This document shows, one piece after another, positions 36,252 through 64,000 of a stretch of 64,000 nt of DNA. The stretch comes from an uncultured Lachnospiraceae bacterium (GTDB lineage: Bacteria > Bacillota > Clostridia > Christensenellales > UBA1242): positions 62-64,061 of the forward strand of contig CAYTHL010000002.1 in the NCBI GenBank assembly GCA_964437615.1, in the 5' to 3' direction. The stretch's first letter is position 1. Each line of letters starts with the position of its first letter. The notes beneath the pieces were generated by a model, which had not been told where the DNA came from, ran no database searches, and was given only the letters and a program-made list of their open reading frames with translations. The translations under genes and the position numbers were made by a program.

Positions 36252-36310
36252 AAAAACGCAAAATGGCTATTAAAAAATGTTAAAAAGTATTAATTTTTGT
36301 TAAATTTTAC

Positions 36311-38770: not shown

Positions 38771-38779
38771 GCCACAAAT

Positions 38780-38839
38780 ATATCAAACAAATTTTAAAAA
38801 AGAGCCAAACACTGACAGCATTTTTAAAATAATTTTTGC
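38780..38839 (-). promoter_or_regulatory. Cluster-specific promoter-like motif, site A
   Basis: Minus strand AAAAATTATTTTAAAAATGCTGTCAGTGTTTGGCT, 20 nt, TATATT, 6 nt, ATG (38770). The upstream 33 bp are ~94% identical to site B. Confidence 0.5.
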
Positions 38840-38932
38840 TAACAATAAAAACAAAAAATTCTGCTTAAATTGACAAATTTTGACCAATTTTTCATATTTT
38901 GCAAGCATATTTTGCAGTTTTTTAAAATTTGC

Positions 38933-40375: not shown

Positions 40376-40501
40376 ATTTGTTCCCTTGTGTTTTATTTTT
40401 TGCAAAAATAATCAAATTTACGTCAATATTAGTCAGTTTTACATAAAATTTTTATACTTTTTTCTATATTTTTACTTACTTTATTATGCTAAAATGCAGT
40501 T

Positions 40502-41494: not shown

Positions 41495-41533
41495 AAAATG
41501 AATAGCCCTTAGCAAATTTAAAATTTTTTCCTT

Positions 41534-42169: not shown

Positions 42170-42248
42170 TTTGTCTCCTTTTTAATTTGTCATATTTTGT
42201 CGCTTTTTGTCAAGTTGGGGCGCGTTTATATTGCCTTGTTACACCCCT

Positions 42249-42310
42249 ATAATAAACCCAAATAAAATTGCTTGGGTCAAACACTGACACAATTTTAAAA
42301 TAATTTTATT
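42249..42310 (-). promoter_or_regulatory. Cluster-specific promoter-like motif, site B
   Basis: Minus strand AAAATTATTTTAAAATTGTGTCAGTGTTTGACC, 20 nt, TATTAT, then a ~73-nt leader to the regulator ATG at 42169. Confidence 0.5.
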
Positions 42311-42340
42311 TGGCCTATTATTTTATTTTCGACAATGTGT

Positions 42341-42356
42341 TAGAACAAATGTTCTA
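42341..42356. promoter_or_regulatory. LexA (Cheo/SOS) box
   Basis: TAGAAC-AAAT-GTTCTA has perfect 6-bp palindromic arms and matches the Gram-positive GAAC-N4-GTTC consensus. It lies in the divergent spacer between the cluster regulator and the giant ORF. Confidence 0.6.
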
Positions 42357-42585
42357 TACAAAATTAGCACATAAAACTGGACACCGTTATGTCTAGTTTT
42401 AAATTTTTTTAAAAAATTTTTTTGAAAAAATGTAAACTAAACGGTAGTTTGCAGCAAAACAAACTGTTTGTAGCTAAGGCAAATAATTTACAAGGCAAAA
42501 TAAATTAAAAAACTTCAAAATAATCTACAAGATTTTTTTATCCATTATTTTTTTATAAAAAATAACAAAATGTGCTAAAATTGTT

Positions 42586-42613
42586 TTGAAATTTTGCCAA
42601 GGTATGTTAGAAT
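42586..42613 (+). promoter_or_regulatory. Candidate sigma-A promoter of the giant ORF
   Basis: TTGAAA (42586-42591), a 16-nt spacer, then extended -10 TGTTAGAAT (42605-42613), ~70 nt before the ATG at 42683. Confidence 0.4.
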
Positions 42614-42682
42614 GTTTTTATAATATTAGTATTATTATTTGGGCAAAAAACCAAACTAAAAATAAGCTAATTTGGGGGCATT

Positions 42683-45600: not shown

Positions 45601-48600
45601 CTACATAATTACTTACAACGGTTATAACTACGGCGTAAACGGCAACACCAGCACTGCCAATAACATAGCAATTTCGGCTACGGCATACAAAGTTCCAGAG
45701 TTTAAATATACTATTAGTTCAGAAAATTCTGATAGCACTTTGGATATGTATGTTTACTACGATGTAGAGGCTTACTACAACAGTAGCACTAGAGAGTACG
45801 AATATTACTACACTGCTCCGCTTGGCAAACAAACTTATGACGAAACCGAATCTAAAATTGTAACTGTATGGTACAATAGCGAGTTTTATAGCAGCAACAT
45901 AAATAGCCTTATAGATAACGACATAGATGACCTTATAGATTACCAAGTTATGCTTGGCTCTGATATAATTAAGAAAATAAGTGGTAAAAAAAGTATTGTT
46001 TTTAATTCTGGCAAAGAAAACGAATATACAAGCAATTTTGACAAGGTAACAAACAGTGGCGTAAGTTTGCTTGCAGACCACTACTACTATGTTGGCAAAC
46101 TTGGGAATCCTGTAAATGTGCTAGTTTCTCAGTATATAAACACTGACGCAAGTTCTACCGAAGAATCAACAATTATGTACTATGATAATAGCACAGGCGA
46201 ATATGTTTACGAGCAAATTTATTCAGAGGTGGCTTCGTATAGTCATGTAATTTATGCCGTGCTTTATAATGACGCTTACTCTCAAAGCTACCAGTACTCA
46301 TTTGGTTATAATGCAGAAAATAAAGCACTTACAACCACCGACGAAAATAATGAAACTAGCTACTATTATAGTTCGGCCAACAGTAAAGGAGGCAGTAGTA
46401 TTACACTTTACTACCAATCAGGATTAAATTCTTCTTTTAGTACTCTAACCTTATCTATCACAGATACATCTACCACAGATACATCTGCCATAGATACAGA
46501 TGACACAGATACAGATGGCACAGATACAGATGAAACCAACAATTCTGAAAACATTGAAAACATAAAGAATTTTGTAAATCAAATACACAATAACTCTTTT
46601 GTATATAATGCAACAGTTGAACAAGTCACAGGCGCCGATTATTATTACTTAAAAAATTACGCTGGGCCACAATTTGGTTCAATATCCAGTACTATGCCAT
46701 CTATTATGTATACCAGCTACACCTATTATTTTTACTCTAGCGATGCAAGTGCCAATGGCAATGTAAATAGCTTTGCTATATTTATTGACCAAAACGGTGA
46801 CTATTATTACTATGCTAACGATACTATACAAGTTGAATCTGAGGATGAGGAGGGCAACATCTCATCAAACTTTTATTTAAAATTAATAAAGTTAAAACTA
46901 AACAGTGGTTATTATGGTGTTGAGGTAGTTGAGGTATCACACAACATATTTATACCAATTATTACAAGCGGTGGTAAATTTGTAACCAGTTTTACGCTGG
47001 GCAGCATAAATTACACAGCATATGTGTCTAGGCATTTCTATGCCATAGATGCTAACCAAACAAGTTTAAGTAGCGCAATACCATTGTACCAAGGTTTAAC
47101 TTCTGGCAGCAACACATACATACTAAGTTCTGATACACCTACGCTAAGCAACACTAATTACAATTATTACTACCTTGTTGGTGAAAGTGAAACAAAACAT
47201 TATGTTGTAAGCAAAACCGTAACGGCTGTTTTAGCAAACTCTACGGGTACAGTTGTTAGGCGTGCCGTTTTAGCCTCTAATACGGCGACGGATATAAACC
47301 TAATTGGAAAAATTATACAAAGCAGTGATACCTCCATTGTCTACCCTAGTTTTAACTACTACCTAGATATAGGCAGCTCTCAAATTTTGGTAGCCGATGC
47401 TTTTGATGACAGCGTTGAATACTTTACCGTAGACTACACCACCAAAGACTCGGTTGTAGAGGCTTTTCCGGGTGTAAAGCTGCTTGCTGGCGCCCCTTAT
47501 GCAAACCCTATATTCTATTTTCAGGTAAAGCACAAGGCTGACGAACAAGCCGTTGTAAACTTTGGCATAGAGGTTGCCAACGCTTACTATGTAGAAGTTT
47601 TAACAAATGCCGTAACTTCTACCACCACCAACCTAATTTACGATTTTGAAACAGTAAGCTTTAAAGACACCATAACCAACCTTACATCTAACGACTACAT
47701 AGACCAAATGTATTATGTTTTGCAAGCCGACACTCTTGATACTGTAGTTGCCTATACAAAGCAGGAAAACTTAACTGGGTCTTGCCCGACCATTGACTCG
47801 GAAGGCAGTGGTGAATACCATGTTTATGATGCAGCTGGAAAAGAGATTTATTGGTACCATTACCATGATGGCTTGGGCATAGAAACTCTCTATGATTGTG
47901 TCAATAAAGAATATATAGTAATAAGCAAAATTGCTGACTACATATTTTATCCAGATAGTGGCAACTATTTTTATGTAAATGTGTACAACACTAGCGGAAG
48001 AATAGAAACTGTATACCAATTTAGAAAGGGTACAAATGAAATTGAAGCCATTTACACCGAGTACTTATCTGGAAGTTATTTAACCATACAAAACATAAAG
48101 GTGTATGACGACGACAACTATGTTTATTCCACCAATTTAGTTGACGAAGACGGCAAGATTTTGGTTAACGACCAAGGCAGGTATACTCAGCAGCTTTACT
48201 ATATAGACCCTACTTTAGGAAAAATTGCGCCACTTATAATTTACAAGGAAAACGCCGACGGCTCTTTAGGAAGCATCAATCTTGTTATATGGGAAAGTTC
48301 GGCAACAGGTATAGAAAATGTCCCTACTTTTGACGCGCATTCTTACTATGTAACCCAAAGCGGAATTGTTATGCTAACATCCGACGGCGCCATAAACGAA
48401 ATTTGCGAAAAATTGGACAGTTTGTTTACTAGCGGAATTGGCTCTTCTATAACCAACTACGATTACAGCGAAGTTTTAATTGGCGGGCTAACCACAGCAT
48501 ACAGGGTAAATGCAAATGACCTTAACTCTATAAACACATTGTCTACAAACGCTAACGACTTGCAATCTTACTGGTGGGAAGACGCAATTAATATTTCTAA

Positions 48601-51600
48601 TGCTTACAACTCTACCGACCCGTACTTTTTATGCGGCAAAGAAGGTGTTGTACTTTTAGCCAACCCTACTGTTGTTTTATCGGACGAAAACGACGGGGAT
48701 ATAATTTATCAATTTAAATATTGGATGGTATTTAGCCGTTACAACAGCAATATTTTGTACTACAACAAAGAGGTAACCGAAGGCTTGGCAGATAGAACCA
48801 ATTCGGTTTGTAGGTTTACTTCGGCAAACGCTGGATATTACATTTTTGTGCCAGTATACGAAAGAGTTTATTCTGTTAGTATTGGCACGGCTGTAGAATA
48901 TGGTGCCAACAACCTTGGCGGCGGCGTTAACATCTATTATGCTGATGGCAACAGTATAAACCTAACCGAATCTAGGTACGGCGATGACGCTGACGAAATC
49001 TATTTTGCACAAATAGAGCCAACCACAGTAAACGGCGTTACAGCTTATTATTACAACAACTTAACCATTACACCATATTTCTACTTTACTGGCAAATTTA
49101 TAACAACAGATGGATACACCTACCCAGAACTAAAGGTAGAGGACAATATATTTAGGTATAGATACACTTTGCTTGGTGTAGAATACGCCAAGTATTACCA
49201 AATAAATGTAACGGGTGCAACGATAACTGCAGAAGAGATTAGCGTTATAACAAACTTTGTATATGGCGAAGCTGGCATAGTACTTATTTATGGCTCAGAT
49301 GGCGAATATAGTTACTACTATAATCGTACCGGTGACTATAATGTACAGACAATCTCCGGAGAGCTTACAACGAGCAGGTACTATGACAAATTTGCATGGC
49401 AAGCCGATAATGACACTAAAACTATTATTGACTACATGAGTTACATGTACAATATAGACTACTACACCGACGGCGTTTTAAGTTATCTATCTGGTTTAAC
49501 AGAATATGCAGACCGTTATCTTAAAGACGGCATATCATTAGATTCTAAAATAGTTTATTACAACAAAACAGAAGGTGCCTTTTATGCATACGACACCCTA
49601 AATATTCAAAAAAACATTTCTTTAGACACAAGTTTAGGCACAAGCAGCAATTTGGCAAGCTGGTTTAAACAATATGGAGAACTTTGCGCAACTAGCATAA
49701 TTAAAAACTTTAATGCCATACTAAATGCGCCAGCATCTACTACAACAGTAATGCCAGACTACAATTACACTAGCGCAAACAATCTTGCCAGCGGAGAACT
49801 TTACTATGCCGAAGACGGCTCGGTTAATATTACTCAGCAGTACAAAACAAGCTACTACACGCGCGACTCTCAAATGGTTCTTTCGGCGGTTGCTGGCTCG
49901 GGCTACAGGCTAGAGGGCTGGTATCTTTCTACTTACAATGCCTCAACCAATAGTTGGGTAGTTAGTTCTAGCGATATCACTACAGAGTTGGGCGTTACCT
50001 ACACCGACGCCATTTTGGAGGTTGTGTATAACCAAATAGACTTTAACTGGTACTATGTAACTAGTTATAGTCAACCGATAAATGGCTTTACATACTATTA
50101 TTATGATAAAGAAAAAACTCAACTTGCTATTGTGCCAAGTTCTTTGGTGGATGACGTTGCCGGATACTATATTACTTACACAGAAAATGGCATAACATTT
50201 TATCAACAACTCTTCCGCAAAAGCCTACTTTCTACAGAATACTACTACGACCAAACATACTCGGTAGCCTACGATGGTCTTCAGACACCTAAGCTAATGA
50301 GCCACTACGAGGCTAAAACTGAGGTTAACGGCAAATACTATATTGGCAGCACCCAGATTTACAAAAATGGTAACACATATTATCGCACTATGAATGCGTC
50401 TAACTTTACTGCTACCGGAAATAAGCTATTTATAACAAACTTGCACAGCAATATTAGGCTTGTGGCTAAGTTTATAGAGGTTTATCAAGCCATGATTTTT
50501 GCCGAAGACAGTTCGGCGGAGAACATTCAAATTGTCTCGGTTTACTATAATAATACTAGTGGTAAGGGCTCTGCTGTAAGGTCAGATTCTTCCGGAAACC
50601 AAATTGTTGCTTTGTCTGCGTCTGTAACCGGCTTAAATAATAATGGGTTTACAACATACAAGTTTACAACAAACATTCAAACTGATTCTGGCTACGACTT
50701 TGATGTTAATGGCGGCAACATTAGCATAAACGATTTTAAATATAATTACGGTAACAACAAATTAACTGATGATTATTGGCAAGGTGTAATAGATAACGGC
50801 AGCTATATTGGCGGAACCGAGTTTAACTATCTTACTGTAGAAGATACCGGCCTAAACAGAGTTAACGAAGAAAACCTTAATTTAAACACCATGTATTTTG
50901 ATGTTTACAACAGCATTTACGTTGTTGTAAGGGTTTATTATACTCAAAAGTTAAATATACACTCTTTGGGTTTAAATTCAGCTTACACTTTAACTCCGGT
51001 GTTCTACCCTACAGAAGAATATATAGACGAAGTTGTGGCTGATGAAGATAAGAGTGTTAATTACCTTTACTACATATTTAAAGTAACATTCGACCGCGAC
51101 CTTGCCGACTATGTTGGTACAACAACAATAGGAGAAGGCGAAGAAGAAAGCGAACTAAAATACACTCTTGCTTCTGACTCTAACTACAATAGTGAGTATG
51201 TTGTTCATGTAAACCGCGGCAAGTCTTTATTTGCCGACGTCATTGATGGCGACTACACATATTTCTATTCTAACCTATTTGGCTATGTAGACTGCTTTGG
51301 GCAAACGGTTGAGTTTACTGTAAGCCAAGAAACTGGCAAAATTACCTTTAGTTCTGATTATTTAAGCGCTTTGAAAACCAACTTGGTAAACGCTGGCGTA
51401 AATCACCTTGCAAATGACACCCGCCTAATAGATACTTACAACTGGGACAACATAAAAGATTTAGCCGAGTATATTAGAAAAACTTATGGTTACAACTTTA
51501 CTATGGCTGGGGTTATAATTAAGGAAATTAGCGAAATTACTGAACCTATAGCTGGCATAACAACTACCACTGCAAAAGCGCTAACGGCTAAAAATACATA

Positions 51601-54600
51601 CGAAGAGAAAAATTACACCAGTTCTTATACAGAAATAATTAATCAAATTAACCTATATTTTAAAAATCAGACTACTAAAATTACTACTCCACAATTAAAT
51701 GGTAGTACTAACTTTATTAATTTTTCAACTATACCAGTATATATTTACACGGTAGGCATGGCAGTTATAACCGACTCTGTTAGCACTGTAAAGTTTGACG
51801 AAGCTGCCCTTGAAAAACTAACCGGAGACTACATTACTGCTGGATATCCATCCAGTGTACAGGAAGAAGAAGATGATGATATTACCGATTTTGGCATAAA
51901 TATTTCTTCTTCACTTTATACGCGCGGTGGAACCAAGGGCTACACCTACATTGGTGCAGGCACACAAACTAACAACTTGTCTGAACCTATCTTGGGTTCA
52001 ACCTACAGCAGCAGATTTGAAGATGTTATATTTGACAACACCGATTTTGCACTTGCCGAAAACACTATTATGGTGTTAGAGGGCTTGGAAATTTCAGATG
52101 AATATTACTGGTATTATAAAAATAATGTTTGGTATGTTAGTTGGACCGAAGACTCCGAAACCTACACATATAAATTTTTAGGCTGGTACGAGCAAAAATT
52201 AATGAAAGGCGACGACGGCGTCTACCGCTGGCAGGATTATCAATTTATGTCAGCAGACCCTGTAAAAGGCTTTGCTAGCAGCGCTGTTGCCGACACCAAT
52301 ATTTTGGCAATATTTGAAAAAGTTGTAAACTTTACTGTAGAAGGCACTAAAAATAACTTTACAATTAATCTAAACTCGTCTGGCGACAGCTTAAACAACG
52401 CAGTAGTAGACCTTTCTGACGACGACACCACTTCTTATTCTGGCGACTACACCATTTCTTCTGATATAACCATGGCTATTACGCCAACTGGTGGCTTTAG
52501 ATTGTCTAATAACTGGACAATTACTGTGCCGGGCTTAGAAAACCACACAACTATAGATGTTTCAAAACTTGACGATATATTCTCTTACAGCCAGTATGAC
52601 GCGGACGGAAACCTTGTTTCTAAAGAGGGCTACGCCGATGTTGTGCTAACCGATACAGTATTTGTTAGCTTTAACTTAGATGCCCTACTAAGGTATATTT
52701 ATAGTGATACGTTAGAAGTTGCCGAAAACGCAGAAGGCGACGAGGACGACGAAGACAATATTATAAGATTTGCTTACGGAAGTGGATACTTTGTTAACAA
52801 CGAAGGACAAGTTATAGACCCAATTTCTAGCCTAAAGATTGAGCTAGAATTTAAGGAAGTTGTGCTTGTAACCCTTAGCGTTGAGGGGTATTTATACACA
52901 GACGGCGACGATATAACACAAAGCTCTGGTTACAACTTTAGTTTGGTTAATGTTGATGGCGAAAATGGCAGTTATACACTTACTAGGTACTTTTTAACCC
53001 AATATGTAGCACCAGAAGAAGGCGAAGATCGTGGCAAGGTTGTTAACGCTTTGGAGGAAATACTAAAAGACAGTGCCCAGCGCGAATTCTTGTTTGATTT
53101 AAACGGCAACAATCTGCTTATTTATGGCTACTTTGATGTAGAACTAAACGGGCACTTATTTGTACAAACTATTGCAGATGATAGTGACGCAGCACAAGCC
53201 GCCACGTTGCAACAATGGTGGTTAAACGGATACTATACAAAAACTACTTGGGGCTATAATAGCGACAGCCTTGGCTTTTACAACTACTCTAATGATACCG
53301 ATTACGAAGAGGTGTTTGGCACAACTAGTGGAGGCAGTGGCGAAGAAGGTAGCGAAGAAAGCAATATTGAAGAAATAAATGTTGACGAAGGCGACGAAGA
53401 AGGCGGCGAAACAAGCAATGGCAATATATTTGATTACAACAATTTAGATGTTTCTACATTCCATGTGTTCTTTAAGTATCTAGAAAATAATGGTACTCCA
53501 TTTGCAACTGGCACTGACGGCATAACCGACGACACTATTGAAATAGGTAATTTAAATGATGAACTATTTAAAACCTCGTTAGACAACCGCGGATATTTGT
53601 TAGAGTGCCGAATAACCAGAGTTAGCACCCTTAAAATTGCCTACATTTCTATAGACTCTTTGGCGGCCCTAGAAGATGAATTTACATTAACAAACAATTC
53701 TGCAACAAATAGTTCTGAAAATGTTAACTATATAGACCAAAATGGCTTAATTTCTTGGACGGGTATGCGCTACACAATCGACGAGTACAATGTCTACACA
53801 GAAGTATCGGCAAACGACAGCTTAAACCTAGACTTAACGGCTGAAGATGGGGCAACTAACCAAATGTGTTACTCTACCTACTACTTTACAAACACAACTT
53901 CAATTACCCTTAGCAATTTGGCGGACTACACCACTATAAACAATACCGTGTTTATGTTTGTAGGCTGGTTTAAAGTTACTTCTGGTTTAACATCTAACAA
54001 CCCTGCTTCTGGTGGTTCGCTAATTTATAGCACCACAGATAATGTCTATCAGCCAGACACTGGCGGCTCTTATGTTGCTGTGTTTGTTAAAACCGCTACT
54101 GTAACAAAGGTTGTTACAGACTATCCAAACGGTACACTGCAAGTTAACACTACTCAGCCAGAATTCTCTTATACAAGTTCTGACCAAGTTGACTGCACTA
54201 TTTATAACCTAGAAAATGTTATGTATATTAATAACGCAATGTATGCAATGATTGGCTCTACCATTAGTGCCGATGTTTCTGCTAACCCAGAATATGTTAT
54301 TAAAGATGTAACTGCCACTTATAGCATTGCCACTTATAGCGAAGATGATGAGGCTACAATAAGCATGCTTACTGACGAAAATAGAAATGCAAACAGTGCA
54401 ACTGCAACCTTGCTTGTAGAAGACACAACTTACCGCATAATAGAGGCCGAGTTTGAACTTGGTTATTTAGTAGAGGTAGAACAACTTTACTACATTAGTT
54501 CTGCAATGAACGGCATTGGTGTGCAGTACAGCAGCGAAAATTTTGTTACAATAACCGATAACAACAACAATCAAACATATAATGCAACAAACACAGAAAA

Positions 54601-57600
54601 TAATAGCGTAAACAGCTACACTTTTGCCACTGGCAGCAACCTTACAATTACATTTACAAACACACCTAATACCTACGGCATTATTGGCTTTTATATAGAC
54701 GGCGTAAAACAAGATTTTACTTATGACGCCGAGAACAATACCTACTCTATTACAGTATGCATTAACAAGCACACCATAATAGAGGCCAGATTTACTACGT
54801 TTGTAAAGGTAATAGTAACAACAAAAGTTTCTGGCTCAACTGTAAACTCTGATAATTACACTACTAAATTTACTTACACAGATCCATATTTGAATGAGCA
54901 AATTACTATATCAGACACAGATACACAGTCAAGTAACTACTATGTTCTTAGCGGAACACTGCTTAATATGAGCACTTCTACCGAGTTAGAAAATGTCATT
55001 TTTGACAGATGGTATGGAAACACCGTGACAAATGCAACAAGCCCTAGTAATTCAGACTACAGCACCAATCCGCAATACATACAAGTTGTGTCTGCAGATA
55101 GCAGTATTACCCCTGCCCGTAATTTTGCTGTTGCAAAGGCAACTGTCCACAATATTTATGCAAACTATCTAAAAAATTACAAAGTAACTATTACAAAGGA
55201 ACTTTTAAGCTACAATATTCAGGATATTGGATACATAGACGAAACAACTGACGAACCTACTTCTATATTCTGGTCTTTGCTAGATGTAACTATTACATAC
55301 ACAGATCAATACGGCAAAAATCAAGAACTTCAAATGGGGTCGCTAAAAGAAATTACCATAAATGTAAAATCTGGCACAAAAATTACAATAACATCCAACT
55401 TGTCTGAACTTGTTGCAAACAGATATTCATTCCTTATTTATAAACCTATTACTACTTTAGTTGTAGGTGACGAAGATGATGGATTGTACGAAGCCTATCA
55501 AACTATTAATGAAGTAACAGCATTTACTGTTAAGTTTTCTGCAACACGCAATCTAACTTTAATTAGGCAAGTAAATAATATAGAAAGCCAAGATAACGCT
55601 GGATGTTTAGATGTAGGATATAGAGCTAGCCAAAACGGAGGAGCAAGTGTAATAACAACGCTTGGCAATTACAGCCACTTGTTTGTAAAACTATTCAACA
55701 CAACATCTATTACAGTTTATGCGGCTAATGCAGAATCAAGCGGCTATATATTTGCAGGATTTTATATTAATGGCGTAGCAGTCGGCACTGGAACTCTCAG
55801 CGATGGCAACTGGCAACTAAAAATAGTTGACGGTGAAGGCGAAAATACAACAGATACCTACTATACCAAAGAAAGTGACCTTTCGGTTGTGGCGCTGTAC
55901 TATATGCGCACCACTATTATTACTGCTGTGTCTGTAGACGGCATAGACGGCACCTACGAAACAGACGGCCTTAACGGAAACCTAAAGTTTACCCTAATAG
56001 GCAACCGCATAAGCGACGCAAAAACTTCTGAACTTGGCGGCATATATTACAACACTGATGTTCAAAGCCTTACAGTTTCTATGCTAAAAAATGGCAGCAC
56101 TCATTACTACCTTAGCGGAAAAACTTTGGGGCTTGTGGCAGATAGCTACCAGGGGTATCAGTTTGAAGGCTTCTACTATAAAGTAGGCCTTAGTGGCACT
56201 TGGGCAAAATTGAGTATGAACACATCTAGCGAATACTCCTATGGTGACACGCTTTCGGCTATATTAGAAACTAGCAAAATGATAACAACCATAAATGATG
56301 CTACTACAGTTTACATTAAAGCTAACTTTTTAAGGGCTAGCAATGTTGCTGTGCAAGTATCTTTCTTAAATAGCTACAATTCTAAAATTACATCTTGTGA
56401 AGTGCCAGAAGTAAACTACCTTAAACTTAATGCAAACAATAATGATATACTAGAAACTTCAACTTACTTGCCATATAACAGTTCTACTACAAGCAAGTAC
56501 TCAAACGACAACGAATTCTACTTTGCCCTATCCACTTATGTTGGCTTTAAAATAAATACCAATTACGACGATTACTATGTTTACAACATATACATTAACG
56601 GCAAAATTTACAATGGCGGATATTCCTATATTTGTGGCGGATATAAATATTTGGTGCTAAATTTAGCTAGCTATAGCAAGCCAGACAATTTTAACCAATA
56701 TGACGCAAACACCAGATACAACAACATAATAATTGATGTTAGACTTGTAGAGGTTGTAGACTACACTATTCGTGTAAGCGTTTACGACACCGAATATTTA
56801 GCAAATATAGAGGCTCTTGGTGTAAATTCCTCTTTAAATAGATACGCTGTAAAAGTTGATTACACCACTATTTCCTATCTTTCAACCTTTGGTGGCTTGC
56901 TTAGTTTAAATGCTAGTTCGGCTGCAAATAGCCAAACAGGCAACTTTATTCTATTGTTTACAAGTACTGACAACATAAGCGGAAGTTATAATACTAATGT
57001 TGTAAGTGTCCGTAACGGCGTGCTTTATGTAAATTTAAAACTGCCTATTGGCTCTAAAGTTAGCGCCGAACTTACAGATTCTGATGGCTATAGTCTAGCC
57101 CAAAACCCAACAATTAGCGGCAACGACAATAATACATACACATATGCTGGTTGGTTTGCATACAATGGCAGTTCGCTTGTTGGCTCTACTTCGGTTATAA
57201 ACTACACTAGAGAGCTAAGTTTCTATCTTGCGCAAGACACCTCGGTGGTTGCAAGATTTGACGCCAATGTTTGGGCTTACACCTACGACACTCAGTACTC
57301 ATATCAGTTTAACGGAACTAATTTTGGTGGCAGCAAAACATTTGCTTCTACTGCAGTCCCTGGCATAAATAGCGACACAATTGCTCAGCAAATAACCGAA
57401 TATTTAAAGAGCTTAAACACCAATACTGGCATTACAAATACATTTGAATATAACGGCAAAAAAGAAGCCGAAACCTATGAAAGCATTACATTGATACTTA
57501 CTGGGCTTGGCAACAATTTGTACGAAATAGACTACACATACGAAAACGACAACGATACCTTGTATTCTGGCAAGTACACCTTTATGTTTATGGGCTGGTA

Positions 57601-60600
57601 CCAAGAAATTAGGGACTATCGAACAGAAGAAAGCCGTGTTTACATGCTTGCTAGCACTACCCTAGAGTTGGGCAACAGCGCTAATAGTCTACTATCTGAC
57701 GCAACTAGCCTTACCGCAGTGTTTACTCAAATTGTAGATGTAAGGCTAAATCAAGACGCAATTAATACTGTTTACTACAGCCGCCTTGCAAATATGTCTA
57801 ACACAACACTACCATTAAATTTAAACAGCAATGACACTGTTATTGGCAGTAGCTTAGATATTTATGGAAATCTTAATATATATGCGCTTTACACAAGCGG
57901 CATTGCTGTAAACGGCTTTGTAAACTACGGCTACTATAACAGTGCAGATGATAATACTCTGGATACAATTAAAGAATACATCACCTACCAAATAGTAAGT
58001 ACCCTTATAGATACAGAATATCTAGTAACTTCTAGTACAGCCGACGACCCAAATGTTGAGAGCAAGGGCAATGTAACACAAGGCGACGCTAGCGGTAATC
58101 AAGTTATTGTAGTCAGCAACAATGCTATTGTCTATTTGTTTGGTGAAAAGCCAACCACAGAAAATTTTGAAGAAATTAAAATTTATCATACATTGTACAA
58201 CTACACAATAAAAACGCGCAACAACATGCTTTACACTATGACGGCAACTGCAGCGCGCGTTGAAACTGATGACGACGAACCAGAAACCGACGACGAGCCA
58301 GAAGTTGGCACAAGTTCGCTAAAACTACTAAATTCTGGGGCAATTGTTGCAACTTCTGGCAGCAAACTTGTTGCAACCTCTGCTACTAAACAACAAAATG
58401 GTGGGATAGAAGCTTATGCCGCCGCCGACAACACTGGTACAGAACAATATACATCTAACACAACAAACTCTGGCTTTGAAATTGGTATAGATGATGATGC
58501 GCCAGACTTGTTTGTGTATATTGGCGGAAGATTAATCGCGCCAAGTTCTGGCAACGACGACGCCACCATAAAAATTGGCGTGCGTTACCCTAGTGGCGAA
58601 TCTGTAGAGCTAAATTTAACTATTGACGACAATACTGGCATACTTTATGTAACAGACGAAACCGGTACCATGGTAGACCCTGCCGAACTTGCCGCACTGC
58701 CAGAAGGCACTCAAATAACATTATCTGTTGTTATGTCTACTTCTCCTACTGTGTTGCTAAGAAAAATAGTTTTATATATGTTTAAAACAGAAAATGACTG
58801 GGAGAATTATATTAATAGCGGCACCTTGCCTGCGTCTGCTGGCTATATATACTACGCCTCAAATGATAATACTGGATCTCAGATAATTAGTATCAAATTA
58901 ACTAACGAAAATAGCATTTCTATTTCTAGTAGTCTTGTAAATCAAAACTCAACAACCTACCCTTACTTTGCTTTTTGTGTAAACTTTGTAAACAACTACG
59001 GCATAGAACTTAAAGAAAACGAACTAGAAAAGGGCAATGTAGGTATTTCTTATAACAATTCGGAACCCTCTATAGATAGTGGCTCGGTGTATGATGTTAT
59101 TATTACCGACTCTGACAGTTATGCTTTTTCCGATTTAACCATACAAGATACAAAAAATTCGGAAGATTCGCTTTCTTCACTGTATGATTTACTATCAAAG
59201 TTATTAGAGGACCAAACAGAATATAGCGCAACTAACCTAAGCGATTTGGTGCTTGCAATACAAAATGCTTATGGTGCCGAGGAAGACCCAACAACATATA
59301 CCTTTGAAGATAATTACTGGACAAGCATTTGTTACAATGCTACCGAAAATATGCCATTTACTTTATACTCTGCTACCGGAAGCCTTACCATTAAAATCAA
59401 TTTTACTTTTAATAGTACCAAAGATTATATTGGTGGCAGTTACATTACTAAAGCAAGCTTTAAATTTACCATAAACAGCAACATAACAATAATTACCAAA
59501 TACGAGCATGTATCTAAGGTAAATGTTTATTTAACAACCGAGGGCTTTGACGCCAATACAACCGGCTACAAAAAAACCGACAGCACAAGTGTTGGCATTT
59601 TGTACATTCAAGATTATCAAATATACACTTTGGATAATAATAGCAAATACGAAGCTATTAACAAACTAGACAAGGTTAGAGAAAAATATCTTAGCACCCT
59701 CTCAGATAATCTTGATGCTGAATTTGTGGCGTACTACTACGAGGGCGGCAAACTTGCTACCACCGGAAGCTACACTGAGGGCAACGACGGCATGCTAATT
59801 ACTGCCGGCGAAGAAGACACCACCAGTGAATACAGCAAAGTTATACAGGAAATTTTAGGTAAAACAACCTATTTATCTGCTAGCACGGTTAGTGACGTTA
59901 TTAAAATAGAGATGCTATTTGTTGCAAGAGTAACCCTTTCTGTTGGTGCAGATACACTATACTACAACCCTATCCCAGAAGAATACTATAACGAAAACGA
60001 AACAGTAGAAGGCTATATGAACCAAAACCTGCTAAATACTCCGCTATATGGAATGCTTTATACTAACGAAAGTTTGGTTGAAGCAACAGAACAATACAAC
60101 AATACTGCTGTTTCTTTCTACTATACAGATAATAATTATTCTGATGTATCGGGTGCATTAAGCGTTTCTACCTTGCTTAGCGAACCAACAACACTTAAAC
60201 TAAATGACAAATATAGCTACTTTAGCTTTTACAAGTGGGAAGCCTTATACGACGACACCGTTGTTTACACCACCGAGGACAATATTTTGTTGTTAAGTTT
60301 TAACCTTATGGCGGATATTTGCGACGCAATTAAACAAAAAATTGAAAATATTACTACAATAGATATAACTAAAATTACCTTGCGCGGCATTTTAAAGGAA
60401 GAAGCCCTAACCACCATGCTAGAATATTCAGTTTCTGGCGAGGCGTTCACGGTTACCACTGGTAACGTTGATGCCACAACTGACACTGTAATTACCATTA
60501 TAGAAGATTATAAATATGAAAATACTGATGACTTTATATCTCTATATTACTATAAAAATCAAATAACTGATAATAACAATATTAACCTTGTGCTTGGGGC

Positions 60601-63600
60601 TTACATTTACGAGTATAATGCTGGCTCCAACACCACCGACTACAAGTTGGTTGTAGCATTTAGCAAAAATATTGCTAATGTAGCTAATGTAGCTAATGTA
60701 GCTTCAGATTCAGACCCAAGCTTTCATGTAAATGTAGTGGCTAGCAGCTATACTAACCAAAATAGCCAAAATGCGGCAAAAACCGACTTATTAAACAAAA
60801 ATTATGTTAGGTTGGTTAGCAATAGTGATCCTATAACAACAGCAGAAAATGTGCCTTTAACCTATTCTAATAATAAATATTATCTGCTAGAGGGCGTTAT
60901 AGACCAAAGCGGCATGCTGCAGTATTCTGATAGCAACAGCGTTATTAACCTTAATTATTCTGGTAACAAGTTAACTTGCTATGGGCTTGATAGTAGCAAA
61001 ACAAGTACACTTTTATCTAACGATAATAATAATGTTACAAACACCGTTAGATATGTTCTTTATGCAAGCAATCTAAACCTTATAGAGTTTGGCACGGCGC
61101 TGCCAACAGAAATTGGTTTATATGATGGTGACTTTACATTAAACATTACGGCTTCCGAAGATAATTTAAAAACTATAGGGGTATCTAATACTTCGCTAGA
61201 TTTAACTAATGGCAATTATGGTGCGCTAAGTTACTTAGTTAGAGAAGGCACACTAATAAAAGCTGAGCTAACCATGAACACCGAGAACACCACCTTATAC
61301 AACAACTTTAACTGCATAGCAATATCTCATAGCTTAATGGTTTCTGACCTGTATGCGTATTTCTATAGCGAAAATACACAAATTGTAAATGTAACTGATG
61401 TTAGTCTAGAAAACTGGCGCACCGCACTTGGCATGGAAGGCGATAGCAACGACAACGACTATTATCAAACCTTGCGACAATATTCCGACTACAGAATTGA
61501 TAGCAAGGCTACAAATTACACCTTTATTGCAACCGAAAATGTAAGCTTTATTGCCGACTTTATTAATCTGTTTGACGAGCAAAGGATGTATCTTACTGTG
61601 CTTCTTGCTGCAGACTCTAGCTTTAATTATAGTTTAGACGGCACAGCAAACGGGCTAAAAGAGTTTAGCGGCAAAAACTTTATAATAATAGTTTCTACCA
61701 AAGGAACCACATTTAACTTGACTCTAGATAGTATAGATTACCACTACTCTGCTACTGGAGAATATGTGGGCTGGGCATCAATAGATATTCCTTCTAGTAA
61801 TTCTACGGATGATGAATCGTCTTCTGACGGCAACGATAGTAACAATGTAGTATCTTACTATACCGGACAAAACATAGTAAAAATAGAAGAAGATAATAAC
61901 TTTTATATAACTATAAAACAACAAAACTATCAAATTGGTGTAGGCTTGGTTAGTAACAAATTTATAGATGTTGCGGCTTGGGCTACAGAAAGATATTTAA
62001 CTTTAAATGGAAAAAATACCAACAAAATAGACGAAGAAGGCAATATTATATACACCACTAGCTACGGATATAATTTGTTACTAGAAAACGGAAGCTTTGC
62101 TACGTCGCCAAGTGTATATGTATCTTCGAGCAGCGACATAGACGACGTATTAGAAAAATTAAGTGGCGTAACTACGGCTGAAGAATACACTGTAGATAGC
62201 TATACTGGGGCAACTTTATCTGGCACAGTTGCAATAGTAACAAATAAACTAAATAGCTCTGTATATTTAGTTGCGCAAGCAAGATATGGTTATTACTTTG
62301 GTGGCTTTTATGCAGTGTCGCAGTCTGCATTGTTAACACTAAATACAGACGAACAAAACTATAATAACACCTGTTCTGCTTACACCATGAAATACCTAGG
62401 TGGCGCTTACTACTTAAATGGCTCTAGTGATAACAGCACATGCACAACTAGAAAAAATGGTAGCACAACCTATTACTACTATTTGTTAGACAATGTTGAC
62501 GGAGATGTAGAAATTGTAGCTGTTTATGTACCTTTTGTATATTTATTAACCATTATAAACAAAGAGTTTGACGAGTCTGAAAATAGCTTAAATAGCGAAA
62601 ATATATATTTGGTGGACCCAGATGACGACGAAATTACAACTCAAGGTAAAGTTTATGCAGAAACTTTACTTATTACCGCTAATAGCTACACAGAACTTAC
62701 CATAAGCAGCAATGGCTATTCAGAATTTAAGGGCATTATTAGCGACGAAGAATATAATTTACAAGCAGCATATTCTCACGAAGAAATTAGCAAGGTAGAT
62801 ATAATTTATACAGATAACTCTACAGAATCTATTGATATAGACGGCTCAACCGAAAAAGACAGGGCCGAACAAATAATTAAAGCATTAAACAAAATATTTG
62901 ATGGAAGCGGTACTAAAAAAGATAATATATCTTCTTACACAATTACCTATACAAGTAGCGAAGATGGAAATGTGCAAACTGGGCTATTATCTACAAAAGA
63001 TGCTCGCCGCCTATTTCCGTTAGATTATTCAAAATTGTTAGCTGCAACAAATACTACTGCTCAAAACACCGACCCCCTTAGCTACATGTATCTATCTTTT
63101 GGCGATATTAATGAAGACATAACTCTGTATGCTTACTTTACATCCATTTATTACACGCTAGAAATAGAAATTGCAGAATTAGAGTCTAGTTATTACTACT
63201 ATGACGATACCACAAGTTATAACTATAACATTACTAGCAAAAATAACAATACTTACTATTTAAGTTATGCAAATGCCGACAGCGATGACTTTGTAAACCC
63301 TAGTGCAGATGACGACTATGGCATAGCAGAGGACGACCCTTATATTTACACATTCTATGATTGCGACGGCAAAAAACTTGCTAACCCAGTTAGAGTTACA
63401 GCAGCTATGGTAGAAAGCACGGCTACATCTGGCGACACTAGCAGCAATTATTTAAGGCTAATTCGCACCAATCAAGCTAACAACACCTACGAATATGCTT
63501 ATGTTGTTACTAAGCCACTTACATCTGGTAATAACTTGTATACATCAGATGTAAATGCCGAAGCAAAAACAACTAATTTGGTTTGTCTAGAAGATGTAAC

Positions 63601-64000
63601 CGAGGGATATTTTGATTTGTCTTTAAGTAATATATTTAACTATGCTAATGTTGACACAAATAGCAAATACAGTTTAATCTCTGGGCTATTTACAATTACA
63701 ATAAACGGCGACGAAATAGATTCTGCAGATATAAACATTAGCAAGGGCGGCCAAGAGATTACTACAAAATACTCAGATTACTATCAGGTTGTTGGTATAA
63801 TAATAAGCAACGATGTCATGGCCGATATAAAAATTTATAAGGGCGTTTCAAAAGACGACGAGCCTTCTATAAAAGTTTCTTTTAAAATTATGGCAAACGC
63901 TAATACTGGCTTCCCTGATGTTCAGATTACGGCTGGAAACAAAAGCAACGAAGGCTCTTCTGGCGTAACCGCCAATAGTGCTTCAATTATTTCAAAAGAT
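42683..64000 (+). CDS. Giant surface (lipo)protein, partial: at least 7,106 aa and open at the window end; multi-module InlB-B-repeat/Flg_new-like
   Basis: I translated this frame by hand from the ATG at 42683 (GGGGG SD-like at 42674-42678) to nt 64000 and found no TAA/TAG/TGA. Residues 50-80 are ...KKASKAKTARFKLGKCCLMFAALLFCAIGLTAC (basic n-region, hydrophobic core, lipobox L-T-A-C; Cys80 at 42920-42922). All track ORFs within 42.7-64 kb are short and in other frames or antisense. Confidence 0.9.
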   Translation, partial: MFNKNRNLKNNNCSGFSQANTCCTSTLAESKCASIGFGTCSNVGTSSKKASKAKTARFKLGKCCLMFAALLFCAIGLTACSWISQSTSAGSTEYDSDGRLRIASTSILLDSEGTDGSVTDTTGSFYWLMSYYINSSNSNFTYSNMMDQSGYTTLIYTDAEGNNYPSSMVGYYNSGERVIREYTNSNGDTASGTITINSAGYYYIAADQTGVKAIAVSNDYYLKDIGLVAANGQNLGSNGQIPEKNSISIVYPYYNVTIDGIITQIKVAVEYSALKIDLASDPSSSQAKINPLTLATDQNSNTADINDVFTFSYRSGTSGDWTECTSGMASAFVGEDGGFYLRFNPNLNKGSTTRSIRLQSITKENANSDANANRGNSTINSPVSFSTYKLTFTSNVTNSSTATFESLSYDEDQYYFAEKTSAINTGILGASTKNPNGINYYTTLTGYFVSGRVVDVSKYVVATSTTKDGVTDYSYTGDYALQPWTLNGKAEYSTIYKQSLPLLSESNPIAFDSSLYIENDKNCVSYTALSLGVGQSILYEDYPTIYTYLSTTTNPYAETIDSFTLNPSATGSDTTGTTYFVYKDTLSVVACSLVASGTFYGNIAKVKNFVSSGTIYDGDKMFSSGNTARLDGYYIYVYQLAQDSTLADIDIGKDNLLIYYKPNSTTGTPTANYNAYKEIYGDIILSDNTWTNGYFSLSNLAYNCYVVFMKEDTVTDETDKTSESFYTFYSASMTKITEETYGLQPLKSYLLYSDRTGNAVIATIYDAASKVQVNIYVINSTNSSVITDIDDTQISYQVLSTTTTATDAFGYTTSTVIISLLLQSNTTLVGYNVETVNSIGQVKYEAQKSDANYDYILLDIGYNSNTTTYGDYIYTYYGVTETTVVKDVSSGGTLNCLMYNDEYYQYTKKDSDSSGVNYYYECLNNTENSSKTLVKSVSASTTTYKLYTYTKLENVATTQTTTESTSGDTVTVSYIITYNGYNYGVNGNTSTANNIAISATAYKVPEFKYTISSENSDSTLDMYVYYDVEAYYNSSTREYEYYYTAPLGKQTYDETESKIVTVWYNSEFYSSNINSLIDNDIDDLIDYQVMLGSDIIKKISGKKSIVFNSGKENEYTSNFDKVTNSGVSLLADHYYYVGKLGNPVNVLVSQYINTDASSTEESTIMYYDNSTGEYVYEQIYSEVASYSHVIYAVLYNDAYSQSYQYSFGYNAENKALTTTDENNETSYYYSSANSKGGSSITLYYQSGLNSSFSTLTLSITDTSTTDTSAIDTDDTDTDGTDTDETNNSENIENIKNFVNQIHNNSFVYNATVEQVTGADYYYLKNYAGPQFGSISSTMPSIMYTSYTYYFYSSDASANGNVNSFAIFIDQNGDYYYYANDTIQVESEDEEGNISSNFYLKLIKLKLNSGYYGVEVVEVSHNIFIPIITSGGKFVTSFTLGSINYTAYVSRHFYAIDANQTSLSSAIPLYQGLTSGSNTYILSSDTPTLSNTNYNYYYLVGESETKHYVVSKTVTAVLANSTGTVVRRAVLASNTATDINLIGKIIQSSDTSIVYPSFNYYLDIGSSQILVADAFDDSVEYFTVDYTTKDSVVEAFPGVKLLAGAPYANPIFYFQVKHKADEQAVVNFGIEVANAYYVEVLTNAVTSTTTNLIYDFETVSFKDTITNLTSNDYIDQMYYVLQADTLDTVVAYTKQENLTGSCPTIDSEGSGEYHVYDAAGKEIYWYHYHDGLGIETLYDCVNKEYIVISKIADYIFYPDSGNYFYVNVYNTSGRIETVYQFRKGTNEIEAIYTEYLSGSYLTIQNIKVYDDDNYVYSTNLVDEDGKILVNDQGRYTQQLYYIDPTLGKIAPLIIYKENADGSLGSINLVIWESSATGIENVPTFDAHSYYVTQSGIVMLTSDGAINEICEKLDSLFTSGIGSSITNYDYSEVLIGGLTTAYRVNANDLNSINTLSTNANDLQSYWWEDAINISNAYNSTDPYFLCGKEGVVLLANPTVVLSDENDGDIIYQFKYWMVFSRYNSNILYYNKEVTEGLADRTNSVCRFTSANAGYYIFVPVYERVYSVSIGTAVEYGANNLGGGVNIYYADGNSINLTESRYGDDADEIYFAQIEPTTVNGVTAYYYNNLTITPYFYFTGKFITTDGYTYPELKVEDNIFRYRYTLLGVEYAKYYQINVTGATITAEEISVITNFVYGEAGIVLIYGSDGEYSYYYNRTGDYNVQTISGELTTSRYYDKFAWQADNDTKTIIDYMSYMYNIDYYTDGVLSYLSGLTEYADRYLKDGISLDSKIVYYNKTEGAFYAYDTLNIQKNISLDTSLGTSSNLASWFKQYGELCATSIIKNFNAILNAPASTTTVMPDYNYTSANNLASGELYYAEDGSVNITQQYKTSYYTRDSQMVLSAVAGSGYRLEGWYLSTYNASTNSWVVSSSDITTELGVTYTDAILEVVYNQIDFNWYYVTSYSQPINGFTYYYYDKEKTQLAIVPSSLVDDVAGYYITYTENGITFYQQLFRKSLLSTEYYYDQTYSVAYDGLQTPKLMSHYEAKTEVNGKYYIGSTQIYKNGNTYYRTMNASNFTATGNKLFITNLHSNIRLVAKFIEVYQAMIFAEDSSAENIQIVSVYYNNTSGKGSAVRSDSSGNQIVALSASVTGLNNNGFTTYKFTTNIQTDSGYDFDVNGGNISINDFKYNYGNNKLTDDYWQGVIDNGSYIGGTEFNYLTVEDTGLNRVNEENLNLNTMYFDVYNSIYVVVRVYYTQKLNIHSLGLNSAYTLTPVFYPTEEYIDEVVADEDKSVNYLYYIFKVTFDRDLADYVGTTTIGEGEEESELKYTLASDSNYNSEYVVHVNRGKSLFADVIDGDYTYFYSNLFGYVDCFGQTVEFTVSQETGKITFSSDYLSALKTNLVNAGVNHLANDTRLIDTYNWDNIKDLAEYIRKTYGYNFTMAGVIIKEISEITEPIAGITTTTAKALTAKNTYEEKNYTSSYTEIINQINLYFKNQTTKITTPQLNGSTNFINFSTIPVYIYTVGMAVITDSVSTVKFDEAALEKLTGDYITAGYPSSVQEEEDDDITDFGINISSSLYTRGGTKGYTYIGAGTQTNNLSEPILGSTYSSRFEDVIFDNTDFALAENTIMVLEGLEISDEYYWYYKNNVWYVSWTEDSETYTYKFLGWYEQKLMKGDDGVYRWQDYQFMSADPVKGFASSAVADTNILAIFEKVVNFTVEGTKNNFTINLNSSGDSLNNAVVDLSDDDTTSYSGDYTISSDITMAITPTGGFRLSNNWTITVPGLENHTTIDVSKLDDIFSYSQYDADGNLVSKEGYADVVLTDTVFVSFNLDALLRYIYSDTLEVAENAEGDEDDEDNIIRFAYGSGYFVNNEGQVIDPISSLKIELEFKEVVLVTLSVEGYLYTDGDDITQSSGYNFSLVNVDGENGSYTLTRYFLTQYVAPEEGEDRGKVVNALEEILKDSAQREFLFDLNGNNLLIYGYFDVELNGHLFVQTIADDSDAAQAATLQQWWLNGYYTKTTWGYNSDSLGFYNYSNDTDYEEVFGTTSGGSGEEGSEESNIEEINVDEGDEEGGETSNGNIFDYNNLDVSTFHVFFKYLENNGTPFATGTDGITDDTIEIGNLNDELFKTSLDNRGYLLECRITRVSTLKIAYISIDSLAALEDEFTLTNNSATNSSENVNYIDQNGLISWTGMRYTIDEYNVYTEVSANDSLNLDLTAEDGATNQMCYSTYYFTNTTSITLSNLADYTTINNTVFMFVGWFKVTSGLTSNNPASGGSLIYSTTDNVYQPDTGGSYVAVFVKTATVTKVVTDYPNGTLQVNTTQPEFSYTSSDQVDCTIYNLENVMYINNAMYAMIGSTISADVSANPEYVIKDVTATYSIATYSEDDEATISMLTDENRNANSATATLLVEDTTYRIIEAEFELGYLVEVEQLYYISSAMNGIGVQYSSENFVTITDNNNNQTYNATNTENNSVNSYTFATGSNLTITFTNTPNTYGIIGFYIDGVKQDFTYDAENNTYSITVCINKHTIIEARFTTFVKVIVTTKVSGSTVNSDNYTTKFTYTDPYLNEQITISDTDTQSSNYYVLSGTLLNMSTSTELENVIFDRWYGNTVTNATSPSNSDYSTNPQYIQVVSADSSITPARNFAVAKATVHNIYANYLKNYKVTITKELLSYNIQDIGYIDETTDEPTSIFWSLLDVTITYTDQYGKNQELQMGSLKEITINVKSGTKITITSNLSELVANRYSFLIYKPITTLVVGDEDDGLYEAYQTINEVTAFTVKFSATRNLTLIRQVNNIESQDNAGCLDVGYRASQNGGASVITTLGNYSHLFVKLFNTTSITVYAANAESSGYIFAGFYINGVAVGTGTLSDGNWQLKIVDGEGENTTDTYYTKESDLSVVALYYMRTTIITAVSVDGIDGTYETDGLNGNLKFTLIGNRISDAKTSELGGIYYNTDVQSLTVSMLKNGSTHYYLSGKTLGLVADSYQGYQFEGFYYKVGLSGTWAKLSMNTSSEYSYGDTLSAILETSKMITTINDATTVYIKANFLRASNVAVQVSFLNSYNSKITSCEVPEVNYLKLNANNNDILETSTYLPYNSSTTSKYSNDNEFYFALSTYVGFKINTNYDDYYVYNIYINGKIYNGGYSYICGGYKYLVLNLASYSKPDNFNQYDANTRYNNIIIDVRLVEVVDYTIRVSVYDTEYLANIEALGVNSSLNRYAVKVDYTTISYLSTFGGLLSLNASSAANSQTGNFILLFTSTDNISGSYNTNVVSVRNGVLYVNLKLPIGSKVSAELTDSDGYSLAQNPTISGNDNNTYTYAGWFAYNGSSLVGSTSVINYTRELSFYLAQDTSVVARFDANVWAYTYDTQYSYQFNGTNFGGSKTFASTAVPGINSDTIAQQITEYLKSLNTNTGITNTFEYNGKKEAETYESITLILTGLGNNLYEIDYTYENDNDTLYSGKYTFMFMGWYQEIRDYRTEESRVYMLASTTLELGNSANSLLSDATSLTAVFTQIVDVRLNQDAINTVYYSRLANMSNTTLPLNLNSNDTVIGSSLDIYGNLNIYALYTSGIAVNGFVNYGYYNSADDNTLDTIKEYITYQIVSTLIDTEYLVTSSTADDPNVESKGNVTQGDASGNQVIVVSNNAIVYLFGEKPTTENFEEIKIYHTLYNYTIKTRNNMLYTMTATAARVETDDDEPETDDEPEVGTSSLKLLNSGAIVATSGSKLVATSATKQQNGGIEAYAAADNTGTEQYTSNTTNSGFEIGIDDDAPDLFVYIGGRLIAPSSGNDDATIKIGVRYPSGESVELNLTIDDNTGILYVTDETGTMVDPAELAALPEGTQITLSVVMSTSPTVLLRKIVLYMFKTENDWENYINSGTLPASAGYIYYASNDNTGSQIISIKLTNENSISISSSLVNQNSTTYPYFAFCVNFVNNYGIELKENELEKGNVGISYNNSEPSIDSGSVYDVIITDSDSYAFSDLTIQDTKNSEDSLSSLYDLLSKLLEDQTEYSATNLSDLVLAIQNAYGAEEDPTTYTFEDNYWTSICYNATENMPFTLYSATGSLTIKINFTFNSTKDYIGGSYITKASFKFTINSNITIITKYEHVSKVNVYLTTEGFDANTTGYKKTDSTSVGILYIQDYQIYTLDNNSKYEAINKLDKVREKYLSTLSDNLDAEFVAYYYEGGKLATTGSYTEGNDGMLITAGEEDTTSEYSKVIQEILGKTTYLSASTVSDVIKIEMLFVARVTLSVGADTLYYNPIPEEYYNENETVEGYMNQNLLNTPLYGMLYTNESLVEATEQYNNTAVSFYYTDNNYSDVSGALSVSTLLSEPTTLKLNDKYSYFSFYKWEALYDDTVVYTTEDNILLLSFNLMADICDAIKQKIENITTIDITKITLRGILKEEALTTMLEYSVSGEAFTVTTGNVDATTDTVITIIEDYKYENTDDFISLYYYKNQITDNNNINLVLGAYIYEYNAGSNTTDYKLVVAFSKNIANVANVANVASDSDPSFHVNVVASSYTNQNSQNAAKTDLLNKNYVRLVSNSDPITTAENVPLTYSNNKYYLLEGVIDQSGMLQYSDSNSVINLNYSGNKLTCYGLDSSKTSTLLSNDNNNVTNTVRYVLYASNLNLIEFGTALPTEIGLYDGDFTLNITASEDNLKTIGVSNTSLDLTNGNYGALSYLVREGTLIKAELTMNTENTTLYNNFNCIAISHSLMVSDLYAYFYSENTQIVNVTDVSLENWRTALGMEGDSNDNDYYQTLRQYSDYRIDSKATNYTFIATENVSFIADFINLFDEQRMYLTVLLAADSSFNYSLDGTANGLKEFSGKNFIIIVSTKGTTFNLTLDSIDYHYSATGEYVGWASIDIPSSNSTDDESSSDGNDSNNVVSYYTGQNIVKIEEDNNFYITIKQQNYQIGVGLVSNKFIDVAAWATERYLTLNGKNTNKIDEEGNIIYTTSYGYNLLLENGSFATSPSVYVSSSSDIDDVLEKLSGVTTAEEYTVDSYTGATLSGTVAIVTNKLNSSVYLVAQARYGYYFGGFYAVSQSALLTLNTDEQNYNNTCSAYTMKYLGGAYYLNGSSDNSTCTTRKNGSTTYYYYLLDNVDGDVEIVAVYVPFVYLLTIINKEFDESENSLNSENIYLVDPDDDEITTQGKVYAETLLITANSYTELTISSNGYSEFKGIISDEEYNLQAAYSHEEISKVDIIYTDNSTESIDIDGSTEKDRAEQIIKALNKIFDGSGTKKDNISSYTITYTSSEDGNVQTGLLSTKDARRLFPLDYSKLLAATNTTAQNTDPLSYMYLSFGDINEDITLYAYFTSIYYTLEIEIAELESSYYYYDDTTSYNYNITSKNNNTYYLSYANADSDDFVNPSADDDYGIAEDDPYIYTFYDCDGKKLANPVRVTAAMVESTATSGDTSSNYLRLIRTNQANNTYEYAYVVTKPLTSGNNLYTSDVNAEAKTTNLVCLEDVTEGYFDLSLSNIFNYANVDTNSKYSLISGLFTITINGDEIDSADINISKGGQEITTKYSDYYQVVGIIISNDVMADIKIYKGVSKDDEPSIKVSFKIMANANTGFPDVQITAGNKSNEGSSGVTANSASIISKD

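Follow-up and report, generated by a model that had tools for sequence, protein, structure and literature searches.

The 64,000-nucleotide (nt) stretch analysed here (the window) comes from contig CAYTHL010000002.1 of an uncultured Lachnospiraceae bacterium and ends within a giant open reading frame (ORF), whose gene exceeds 21 kb and whose product exceeds 7105 amino acids (aa), with a composition dominated by Thr (11%), Ser (10%), Tyr (9%) and Asn (9%), and with 3% Phe and only 0.6% Trp. Alignment with relatives places a further ~320-500 aa of the protein, including a C-terminal transmembrane (TM) anchor, beyond the window. An earlier note, made from the letters of the window, had read the distal two thirds of this protein as at least 13 diverged modules of the Flg_new/InlB B-repeat type. 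Our results showed nine modules, and the explanation that we consider the best as a whole, with somewhat better than even confidence, is that they are B-repeat-like all-beta modules in a giant surface lipoprotein.

A search with the N-terminal region retrieved eight more proteins (P0002-P0009; 6,936-7,789 aa), among which P0002 is the closest relative of the window protein. None of the eight has a precomputed Pfam domain. Each aligns colinearly with the window protein along the full length, at an identity of 35-48% for the N-terminal third and 30-41% for the distal part. A lipobox-type Cys is found near the N terminus of all nine members (the lipobox of P0008, read straight from the sequence, is MAAC), and seven of the eight full-length relatives carry a strongly hydrophobic C-terminal TM segment, preceded in the relatives by a conserved Cys/His-rich domain of ~300 aa that falls past the window end. 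The lipobox and the hydrophobic segment count for a predicted surface lipoprotein, and the nine colinear giants make up an uncharacterised protein family with no named domain, probably anchored at both ends. No relatives of the giant protein came from scans of genome contigs (made twice) and of metagenome contigs, a module-alignment profile found nothing in a set of 5.8 billion proteins, and phmmer of both protein halves found nothing in the PDB. When 1.84 billion representatives were searched exhaustively with phmmer, P0002 was the one match obtained. This single match is an artefact, because the composition-bias filter of HMMER drops seven of the eight true homologs: a local default phmmer run, tested on aa 3720-4900, also finds P0002 only among the nine family members, while --max or --nobias brings the other seven relatives to 169-313 bits and BLASTP recovers all of them. 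The family is therefore probably larger than nine.

All 13 motif strings quoted in the earlier note, and all six of its terminal strands, were found in the translation of the forward-strand frame that begins at 42683, with positions right within a few tens of nt. The pattern [FLIVMY]xG[WF][YF] occurs 9 times in the protein, in comparison to 0.78 +/- 0.88 times in 500 shuffles, and the stricter pattern [YF]x[FLIVM]xG[WF][YF] occurs 8 times in comparison to 0.08 expected from shuffles. All instances of the core motif lie at aa 2408-6541 and none precedes residue 2408, so that the pattern scan agrees with the earlier remark that the first 2,000 aa lack the motif; the irregular spacing of the modules was likewise confirmed. 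Identity to P0002 is 78% in the nine core motifs, in comparison to 40% for random 9-mers, and none of 5000 resamplings reached 78%. Aromatic positions are conserved in the nine orthologs for 12 of the 13 listed motifs, the exception being aa 6360. A closing strand of the form hydrophobic-x-A-x-aromatic matches 18 times in the whole protein, and eight of the nine core motifs have one 28-80 aa downstream (null 1.2, P<2e-4); these closing strands are conserved in all nine orthologs, e.g., DTNIIALFERAV, DTDLTIVALWY and ATNMIAIFTQI. The nine modules are real and their recurrence is not chance, and the results show them to be under purifying selection. Of the earlier count of at least 13, then, nine modules are solid (2408, 3163, 3757, 3998, 4355, 4492, 4819, 4967 and 6537, numbered by residue), while motifs 2009, 4105 and 5846 keep an x-F-x-x-W in the nine orthologs but have no profile link, and motif 6360, which is conserved in no ortholog, was rejected as a module. 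A pooled module profile scanned over the nine-ortholog alignment gave no further module beyond the edges of the known ones. Coordinates are collected in Table 1.

Table 1. Coordinates of the giant ORF, its modules and candidate motifs, and the neighbouring gene cluster (positions in the window)
Feature	Position (nt)	Strand	Remarks
Giant ORF	42683..64000	+	one open frame, 7105 codons, open at the 3' end of the window
Lipobox LTAC, Cys80	42911..42922	+	predicted from sequence; equivalent L/I/M-S/A-A-C in all nine family members
Module 2408 (GYRLEGWY)	49766..50038	+	highly conserved in orthologs; only weak hhalign links to other modules
Module 3163 (YKFLGWYEQK ... ILAIFEKV)	52031..52327	+	paralog group A, GW type
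Module 3757 (FMFVGWFKV ... YVAVFVKT)	53813..54097	+	group A
Module 3998 (YGIIGFYIDG ... IIEARFTT)	54536..54802	+	folded with AlphaFold2; weak link to group B
Module 4355 (GYIFAGFYING ... VVALYYM)	55607..55912	+	group B, GF type
Module 4492 (GYQFEGFYYK ... YIKANFL)	56018..56338	+	group B; sub-threshold Flg_new_2 match, E 0.024
Module 4819 (YTYAGWFAYNG ... VVARFDA)	56999..57268	+	group A at group-profile level, prob 83
Module 4967 (FMFMGWYQEI ... LTAVFTQ)	57443..57733	+	group A
Module 6537 (GYYFGGFYAV ... IVAVYVP)	62153..62536	+	group B; insertion of roughly 30 aa
Candidate motif 2009 (YQFKYWMVFS)	48707..48736	+	IIYxFKxWxxYxR conserved in nine orthologs; no profile link
Candidate motif 4105 (VIFDRWYGNT)	54995..55024	+	F-x-x-W alone conserved; no profile link, best prob 1.8
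Candidate motif 5846 (YFSFYKWEAL)	60218..60247	+	YFSFxxW conserved in nine orthologs; no profile link
Listed motif 6360 (EYVGWASIDI)	61760..61789	+	rejected
Podovirus-like (short-tailed-phage-like) structural cluster	26000-42700	opposite to giant gene	directly precedes the giant gene

To compare the modules with each other, a BLASTP self-comparison in 160-aa windows gave no internal repeat at E<1e-3, and the leave-one-out hidden Markov model (HMM; 1-13 bits) and hhalign from single sequences gave scores near the background maximum. HMM and hhalign profiles built from the window's own modules are circular and recover their training members only, and hhalign profiles built solely from each module's nine orthologs were used for a non-circular comparison. 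With these, modules 3163, 3757 and 4967 aligned in register (3163-3757 prob 83, 3163-4967 prob 93, 3757-4967 prob 71; group A), and so did modules 4355, 4492 and 6537 (4355-4492 prob 72, 4355-6537 prob 92, 4492-6537 prob 86; group B). At the group level, 4819 joined group A, and 3998 and 2408 leaned weakly to group B (prob 13 and 11, respectively); 2009, 4105 and 5846 were linked to no module. The results showed that the modules are paralogous within each of two old groups, a GW type (3163, 3757, 4819 and 4967) and a GF type (4355, 4492 and 6537, with 3998 and 2408 attached more loosely). Profile-profile self-comparison, in which the earlier note had expected internal periodicity, thus gives two paralog groups and not one 13-fold repeat. 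One further segment at ~54230-54460 (aa ~3850-3925, GSTISADVSANPEYVIKDV...IIEAEF) was observed as a possible tenth, Trp-less module; its conserved form in all nine orthologs is G..I.V.V.AD.GYLV.D[IV], which by eye resembles Flg_new_2, and its hhalign link to the modules has a prob below 3.

The fold of one module was predicted with AlphaFold2. For module 3998, an 18-row paralog/ortholog alignment gave a model with a predicted local distance difference test score (pLDDT) of 89.5 and a predicted template modelling score of 0.78, in which the conserved elements are the strands at residues 33-40 (NLTITFTN), 46-53 (YGIIGFYI) and 81-87 (TIIEARF). According to this model, the module folds as a compact beta domain. 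A 2-row alignment of aa 3930-5030 gave an overall pLDDT of 32.6, with about 45-60 for the module 3998 stretch, and the gain of the 18-row run over the 2-row run speaks for a fold common to the aligned modules.

That the motifs might be chance recurrences in a protein with so much Tyr and Phe, with no discrete modules behind them, can be weighed against these data. The lack of BLAST-detectable internal repeats, the low leave-one-out scores of the single-sequence HMM and the unlike behaviour of four of the 13 listed motifs would fit such a reading, but the shuffling controls, the conservation in nine orthologs, the coupling of motif to terminal strand, the ortholog-profile hhalign prob of up to 93 and the confident fold obtained from a paralog alignment all contradict it. 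We consider it extremely improbable; it was rejected for the nine core modules and stands only for aa 6360.

With regard to the identity of the modules, the core strand G-Y-x-F-x-G-W-[YF] is present and conserved in the nine orthologs in 3163, 3757, 4819, 4967 and 2408 (as GYRLxxWY), and it reads G-F-[YF] in 3998, 4355, 4492 and 6537. The L-Y-A-x-W-type closing strand is a defining part of the Flg_new or Listeria-Bacteroides repeat consensus, and in its hydrophobic-x-A-x-aromatic form it occurs in eight of the nine modules and is kept in the orthologs. Among 81 module sequences (nine modules from nine orthologs), Flg_new_2 (PF18998) was matched by 13 (best E 8.7e-4), all sub-threshold, and Flg_new (PF09479) by 2 (best E 3.7e-3), while every other listed Pfam family had one match each; within the window protein, the best single-sequence Flg_new_2 match was module 2408 (E 0.004, 17.4 bits). 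As a control, 92 windows were taken from elsewhere in the protein; 46 families were matched in these, and the 25 of them that were listed, with every family matched more than once among them, contained neither Flg_new_2 nor Flg_new. When the PDB was searched with the pooled 81-sequence profile, the InlB B-repeat crystal chain 2y5p came first of 177,635 sequences (E 0.003, 21 bits), and five further distinct InlB sequences were within the top 13. The group A profile alone also placed 2y5p first (E 0.025), aligned to residues 10-62 of the 74-residue chain.

A number of results speak against such a relationship. Scans of the two protein halves with Pfam and NCBIfam, including PF09479 and the B-repeat models that the earlier note had proposed as a check, gave nothing at E<=1, and for single modules no match at E<=10 was obtained with PF09479 (10, then 18, modules) or with the NCBIfam B-repeat models, including TIGR02543 (any of 18 modules). 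The PF18998 gathering score of 23.6 bits was never reached by the single modules of the window protein, whose matches scored 15-17 bits, and a module consensus sequence scored worse against Pfam than the single modules did. Groups A and B align with each other only across the 16-residue motif (prob 2.8), and group B alone did not retrieve InlB in the PDB search. Foldseek with the module 3998 model gave no significant neighbour in either the PDB (best E 0.16) or BFVD; the highest-ranking ones were immunoglobulin-like (Ig-like) sandwiches (filamin, template modelling score about 0.6), with InlB absent from the top 50. PMC12415215 (citing Ebbes 2011) describes the B-repeat as a beta-grasp fold, in contrast to which the module 3998 model is helix-free. 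Antibody V-domains ('...C...WYQQ') scored nearly as high as InlB in the PDB searches, so that a short strand-turn-strand pattern accounts for part of the signal. As for the database scans, the bias filter drops true homologs, and negative hmmscan results (Pfam, NCBIfam) on the giant protein are therefore weak evidence.

Several of these points would be expected if the modules were instead one or two lineage-specific Ig-like beta-sandwich families unrelated to the B-repeat, in which the G-Y-x-F-x-G-W-Y strand and the closing A-x-F strand would have arisen by convergence as ways to bury aromatics in a small sandwich, comparable to the '...C...WYQQ' of V-set domains. The Foldseek neighbours, the eight strands of the all-beta module 3998 model, the near-equal fit of antibody V-domains to the profiles, the sub-threshold level of every Pfam match, the restriction of the similarity between groups A and B to the motif in hhalign, and a module length beyond that of the B-repeat are all in its favor. 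It is, however, opposed by the finding that the pre-specified Flg_new_2 is the only recurrent Pfam match among the 81 module sequences and is not listed for the control windows, by Flg_new_2 alignments that span profile positions 10-49 of 73 and thus more than the motif, and by the rank of InlB among the PDB sequences; in addition, the modules are without the Cys pair that defines the V-set, and the Foldseek ranking is itself weak, with no significant E-value. Homology to V-set immunoglobulins proper was rejected, since no Cys is conserved in the modules and the antibody matches are confined to the '...tLs.....Y.F.GWY' stretch. An unrelated Ig-like origin is therefore regarded by us as a serious alternative, albeit clearly the less likely one. 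The B-repeat assignment of the earlier note was supported in part: the recurrent, module-specific weak Flg_new_2 matches, InlB as the top PDB match, and the motif with its closing strand speak for it, whereas no curated threshold was reached, the modules are 70-130 aa and not about 70, no helix is predicted, Foldseek did not pair the model with InlB, group B stayed without InlB, and the self-comparison gave two paralog groups. On these grounds we regard the nine modules as probable, very distant kin of the InlB B-repeats, with Flg_new_2 a nearer relative than Flg_new.

Taken together, the distal two thirds of the giant lipoprotein would contain nine positionally fixed, individually diverged all-beta modules of ~70-130 aa each, which account for about 18% of the distal part. 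Each module would comprise a strand ending in L/I-x-A, a next strand (G)Y-x-F-x-G-W/F-Y/F, a variable hairpin region, and a last strand D-x-x-hydrophobic-x-A-x-F/Y/W. We infer that the modules, like B-repeats and other 'periscope' domains known from Gram-positive surface proteins, could serve as rigid beads that make up a very long extracellular fibre and set its spacing. The fibre would be lipid-anchored and probably TM-anchored as well, and some of the modules may bind ligands. The low mutual identity of the modules fits side-by-side folding without mispairing or recombination. Beads of the B-repeat type are common in the huge surface proteins of gut Firmicutes, in which they are an ordinary building block. 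A spacer or 'periscope' bead role, with possible binding, has been discussed for B-repeats (PMC12415215).

Some other parts of the giant protein also drew attention. The most conserved stretch lies at 47525-47704 (aa 1615-1674), with 74% mean identity in the nine orthologs; it contains VKHKADEQAVVNFGIEV...TVSFKDTITNLTSNDYID, falls in the N-terminal third, where the motif is absent, and matches no family. For the motif-free stretch at 55180-55545 (aa 4166-4287), the poor two-row AlphaFold2 run still gave a pLDDT of 55-72, and as judged from that model this stretch, which contains SGTKITITSNLSELVANRYSFLIY, may be a further compact beta domain in which the motif has degenerated. Non-module windows of 116 aa, taken from 42923-63976, gave sub-threshold Pfam hints of other adhesin-type beta domains, namely Collagen_bind (E 0.0018) and MucBP (E 0.0095) in two windows each, and DUF7601 (E 8.5e-4) and Big_3_3 in one window each.

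Upstream of the giant ORF are housekeeping genes (RF-1, GlmS, GlmM, DinB, MgsA and RNase J) and the podovirus-like structural cluster, whose genes include TerL (terminase), a P22-like portal, a major head protein and a tail protein, and in whose scanned ORFs no replication or lysogeny genes were seen. The intergenic region 42170-42682 is common to this cluster and the giant gene. That the giant ORF belongs to the phage-like cluster was considered and rejected, given its lipobox and TM anchor, the lack of any PHROG or Pfam phage signal, and its colinearity with eight giant bacterial-type proteins. A looser tie could also be imagined, in which the giant family is a previously undescribed class of envelope proteins and the giant protein of this genome, given the shared intergenic region, which bears a LexA box, is functionally connected to the particles of the neighbouring, domesticated podovirus-like (gene transfer agent-like) cluster. 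We hold this to be quite unlikely; if true, the giant protein would be, for example, a surface receptor of the particles or a barrier to them and not a generic adhesin, and contact would be made through the B-repeat-like modules.

In terms of novelty, which is modest overall, the analysis adds two old, positionally fixed module subfamilies that were missed by curated models and could seed new profiles, an uncharacterised family of giant proteins of ~7,000-7,800 aa, and a pitfall of the bias filter, by which a verdict of 'orphan' or 'no Pfam domain' for giant proteins rich in Ser, Thr, Asn and Tyr can be an artefact.

Among known systems, extracellular giants of Gram-positive symbionts such as Giant1-5 of Apilactobacillus kunkeei resemble the giant family described here in their size of 3,000-8,000 aa, their elongated strings of beta-rich domains, their narrow phyletic range and their little similarity to named domains (PMC12863079). 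No sequence relationship was found between the two, and unlike Giant1-5 the giant family here has a lipobox and a C-terminal TM anchor, and no beta-solenoid head was detected in it. Flg_new_2, the 'Divergent InlB B-repeat domain', shares with the modules the order of elements, i.e., a strand ending in L-x-A followed by GY-x-F-x-G-W and then by a closing A-x-F strand, and its usual setting is very large bacterial surface proteins, like the host protein here. In comparison to its 73-position profile, the modules here span 70-130 aa, with insertions of 10-50 aa separating the last strand from the motif, and in half of them the W of the family is replaced by F. With the InlB B-repeat itself (PF09479 Flg_new, TIGR02543, 2Y5P), the modules have the GYxFxGWY motif in common, and the alignments of the pooled and group A profiles cover most of the 74-residue chain of 2Y5P. 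The InlB B-repeat is described as a beta-grasp with a helix, in comparison to the eight strands and no helix of the module 3998 model, which Foldseek did not pair with it, and B-repeats of InlB stand in tandem, whereas the modules here are scattered and held at fixed positions.

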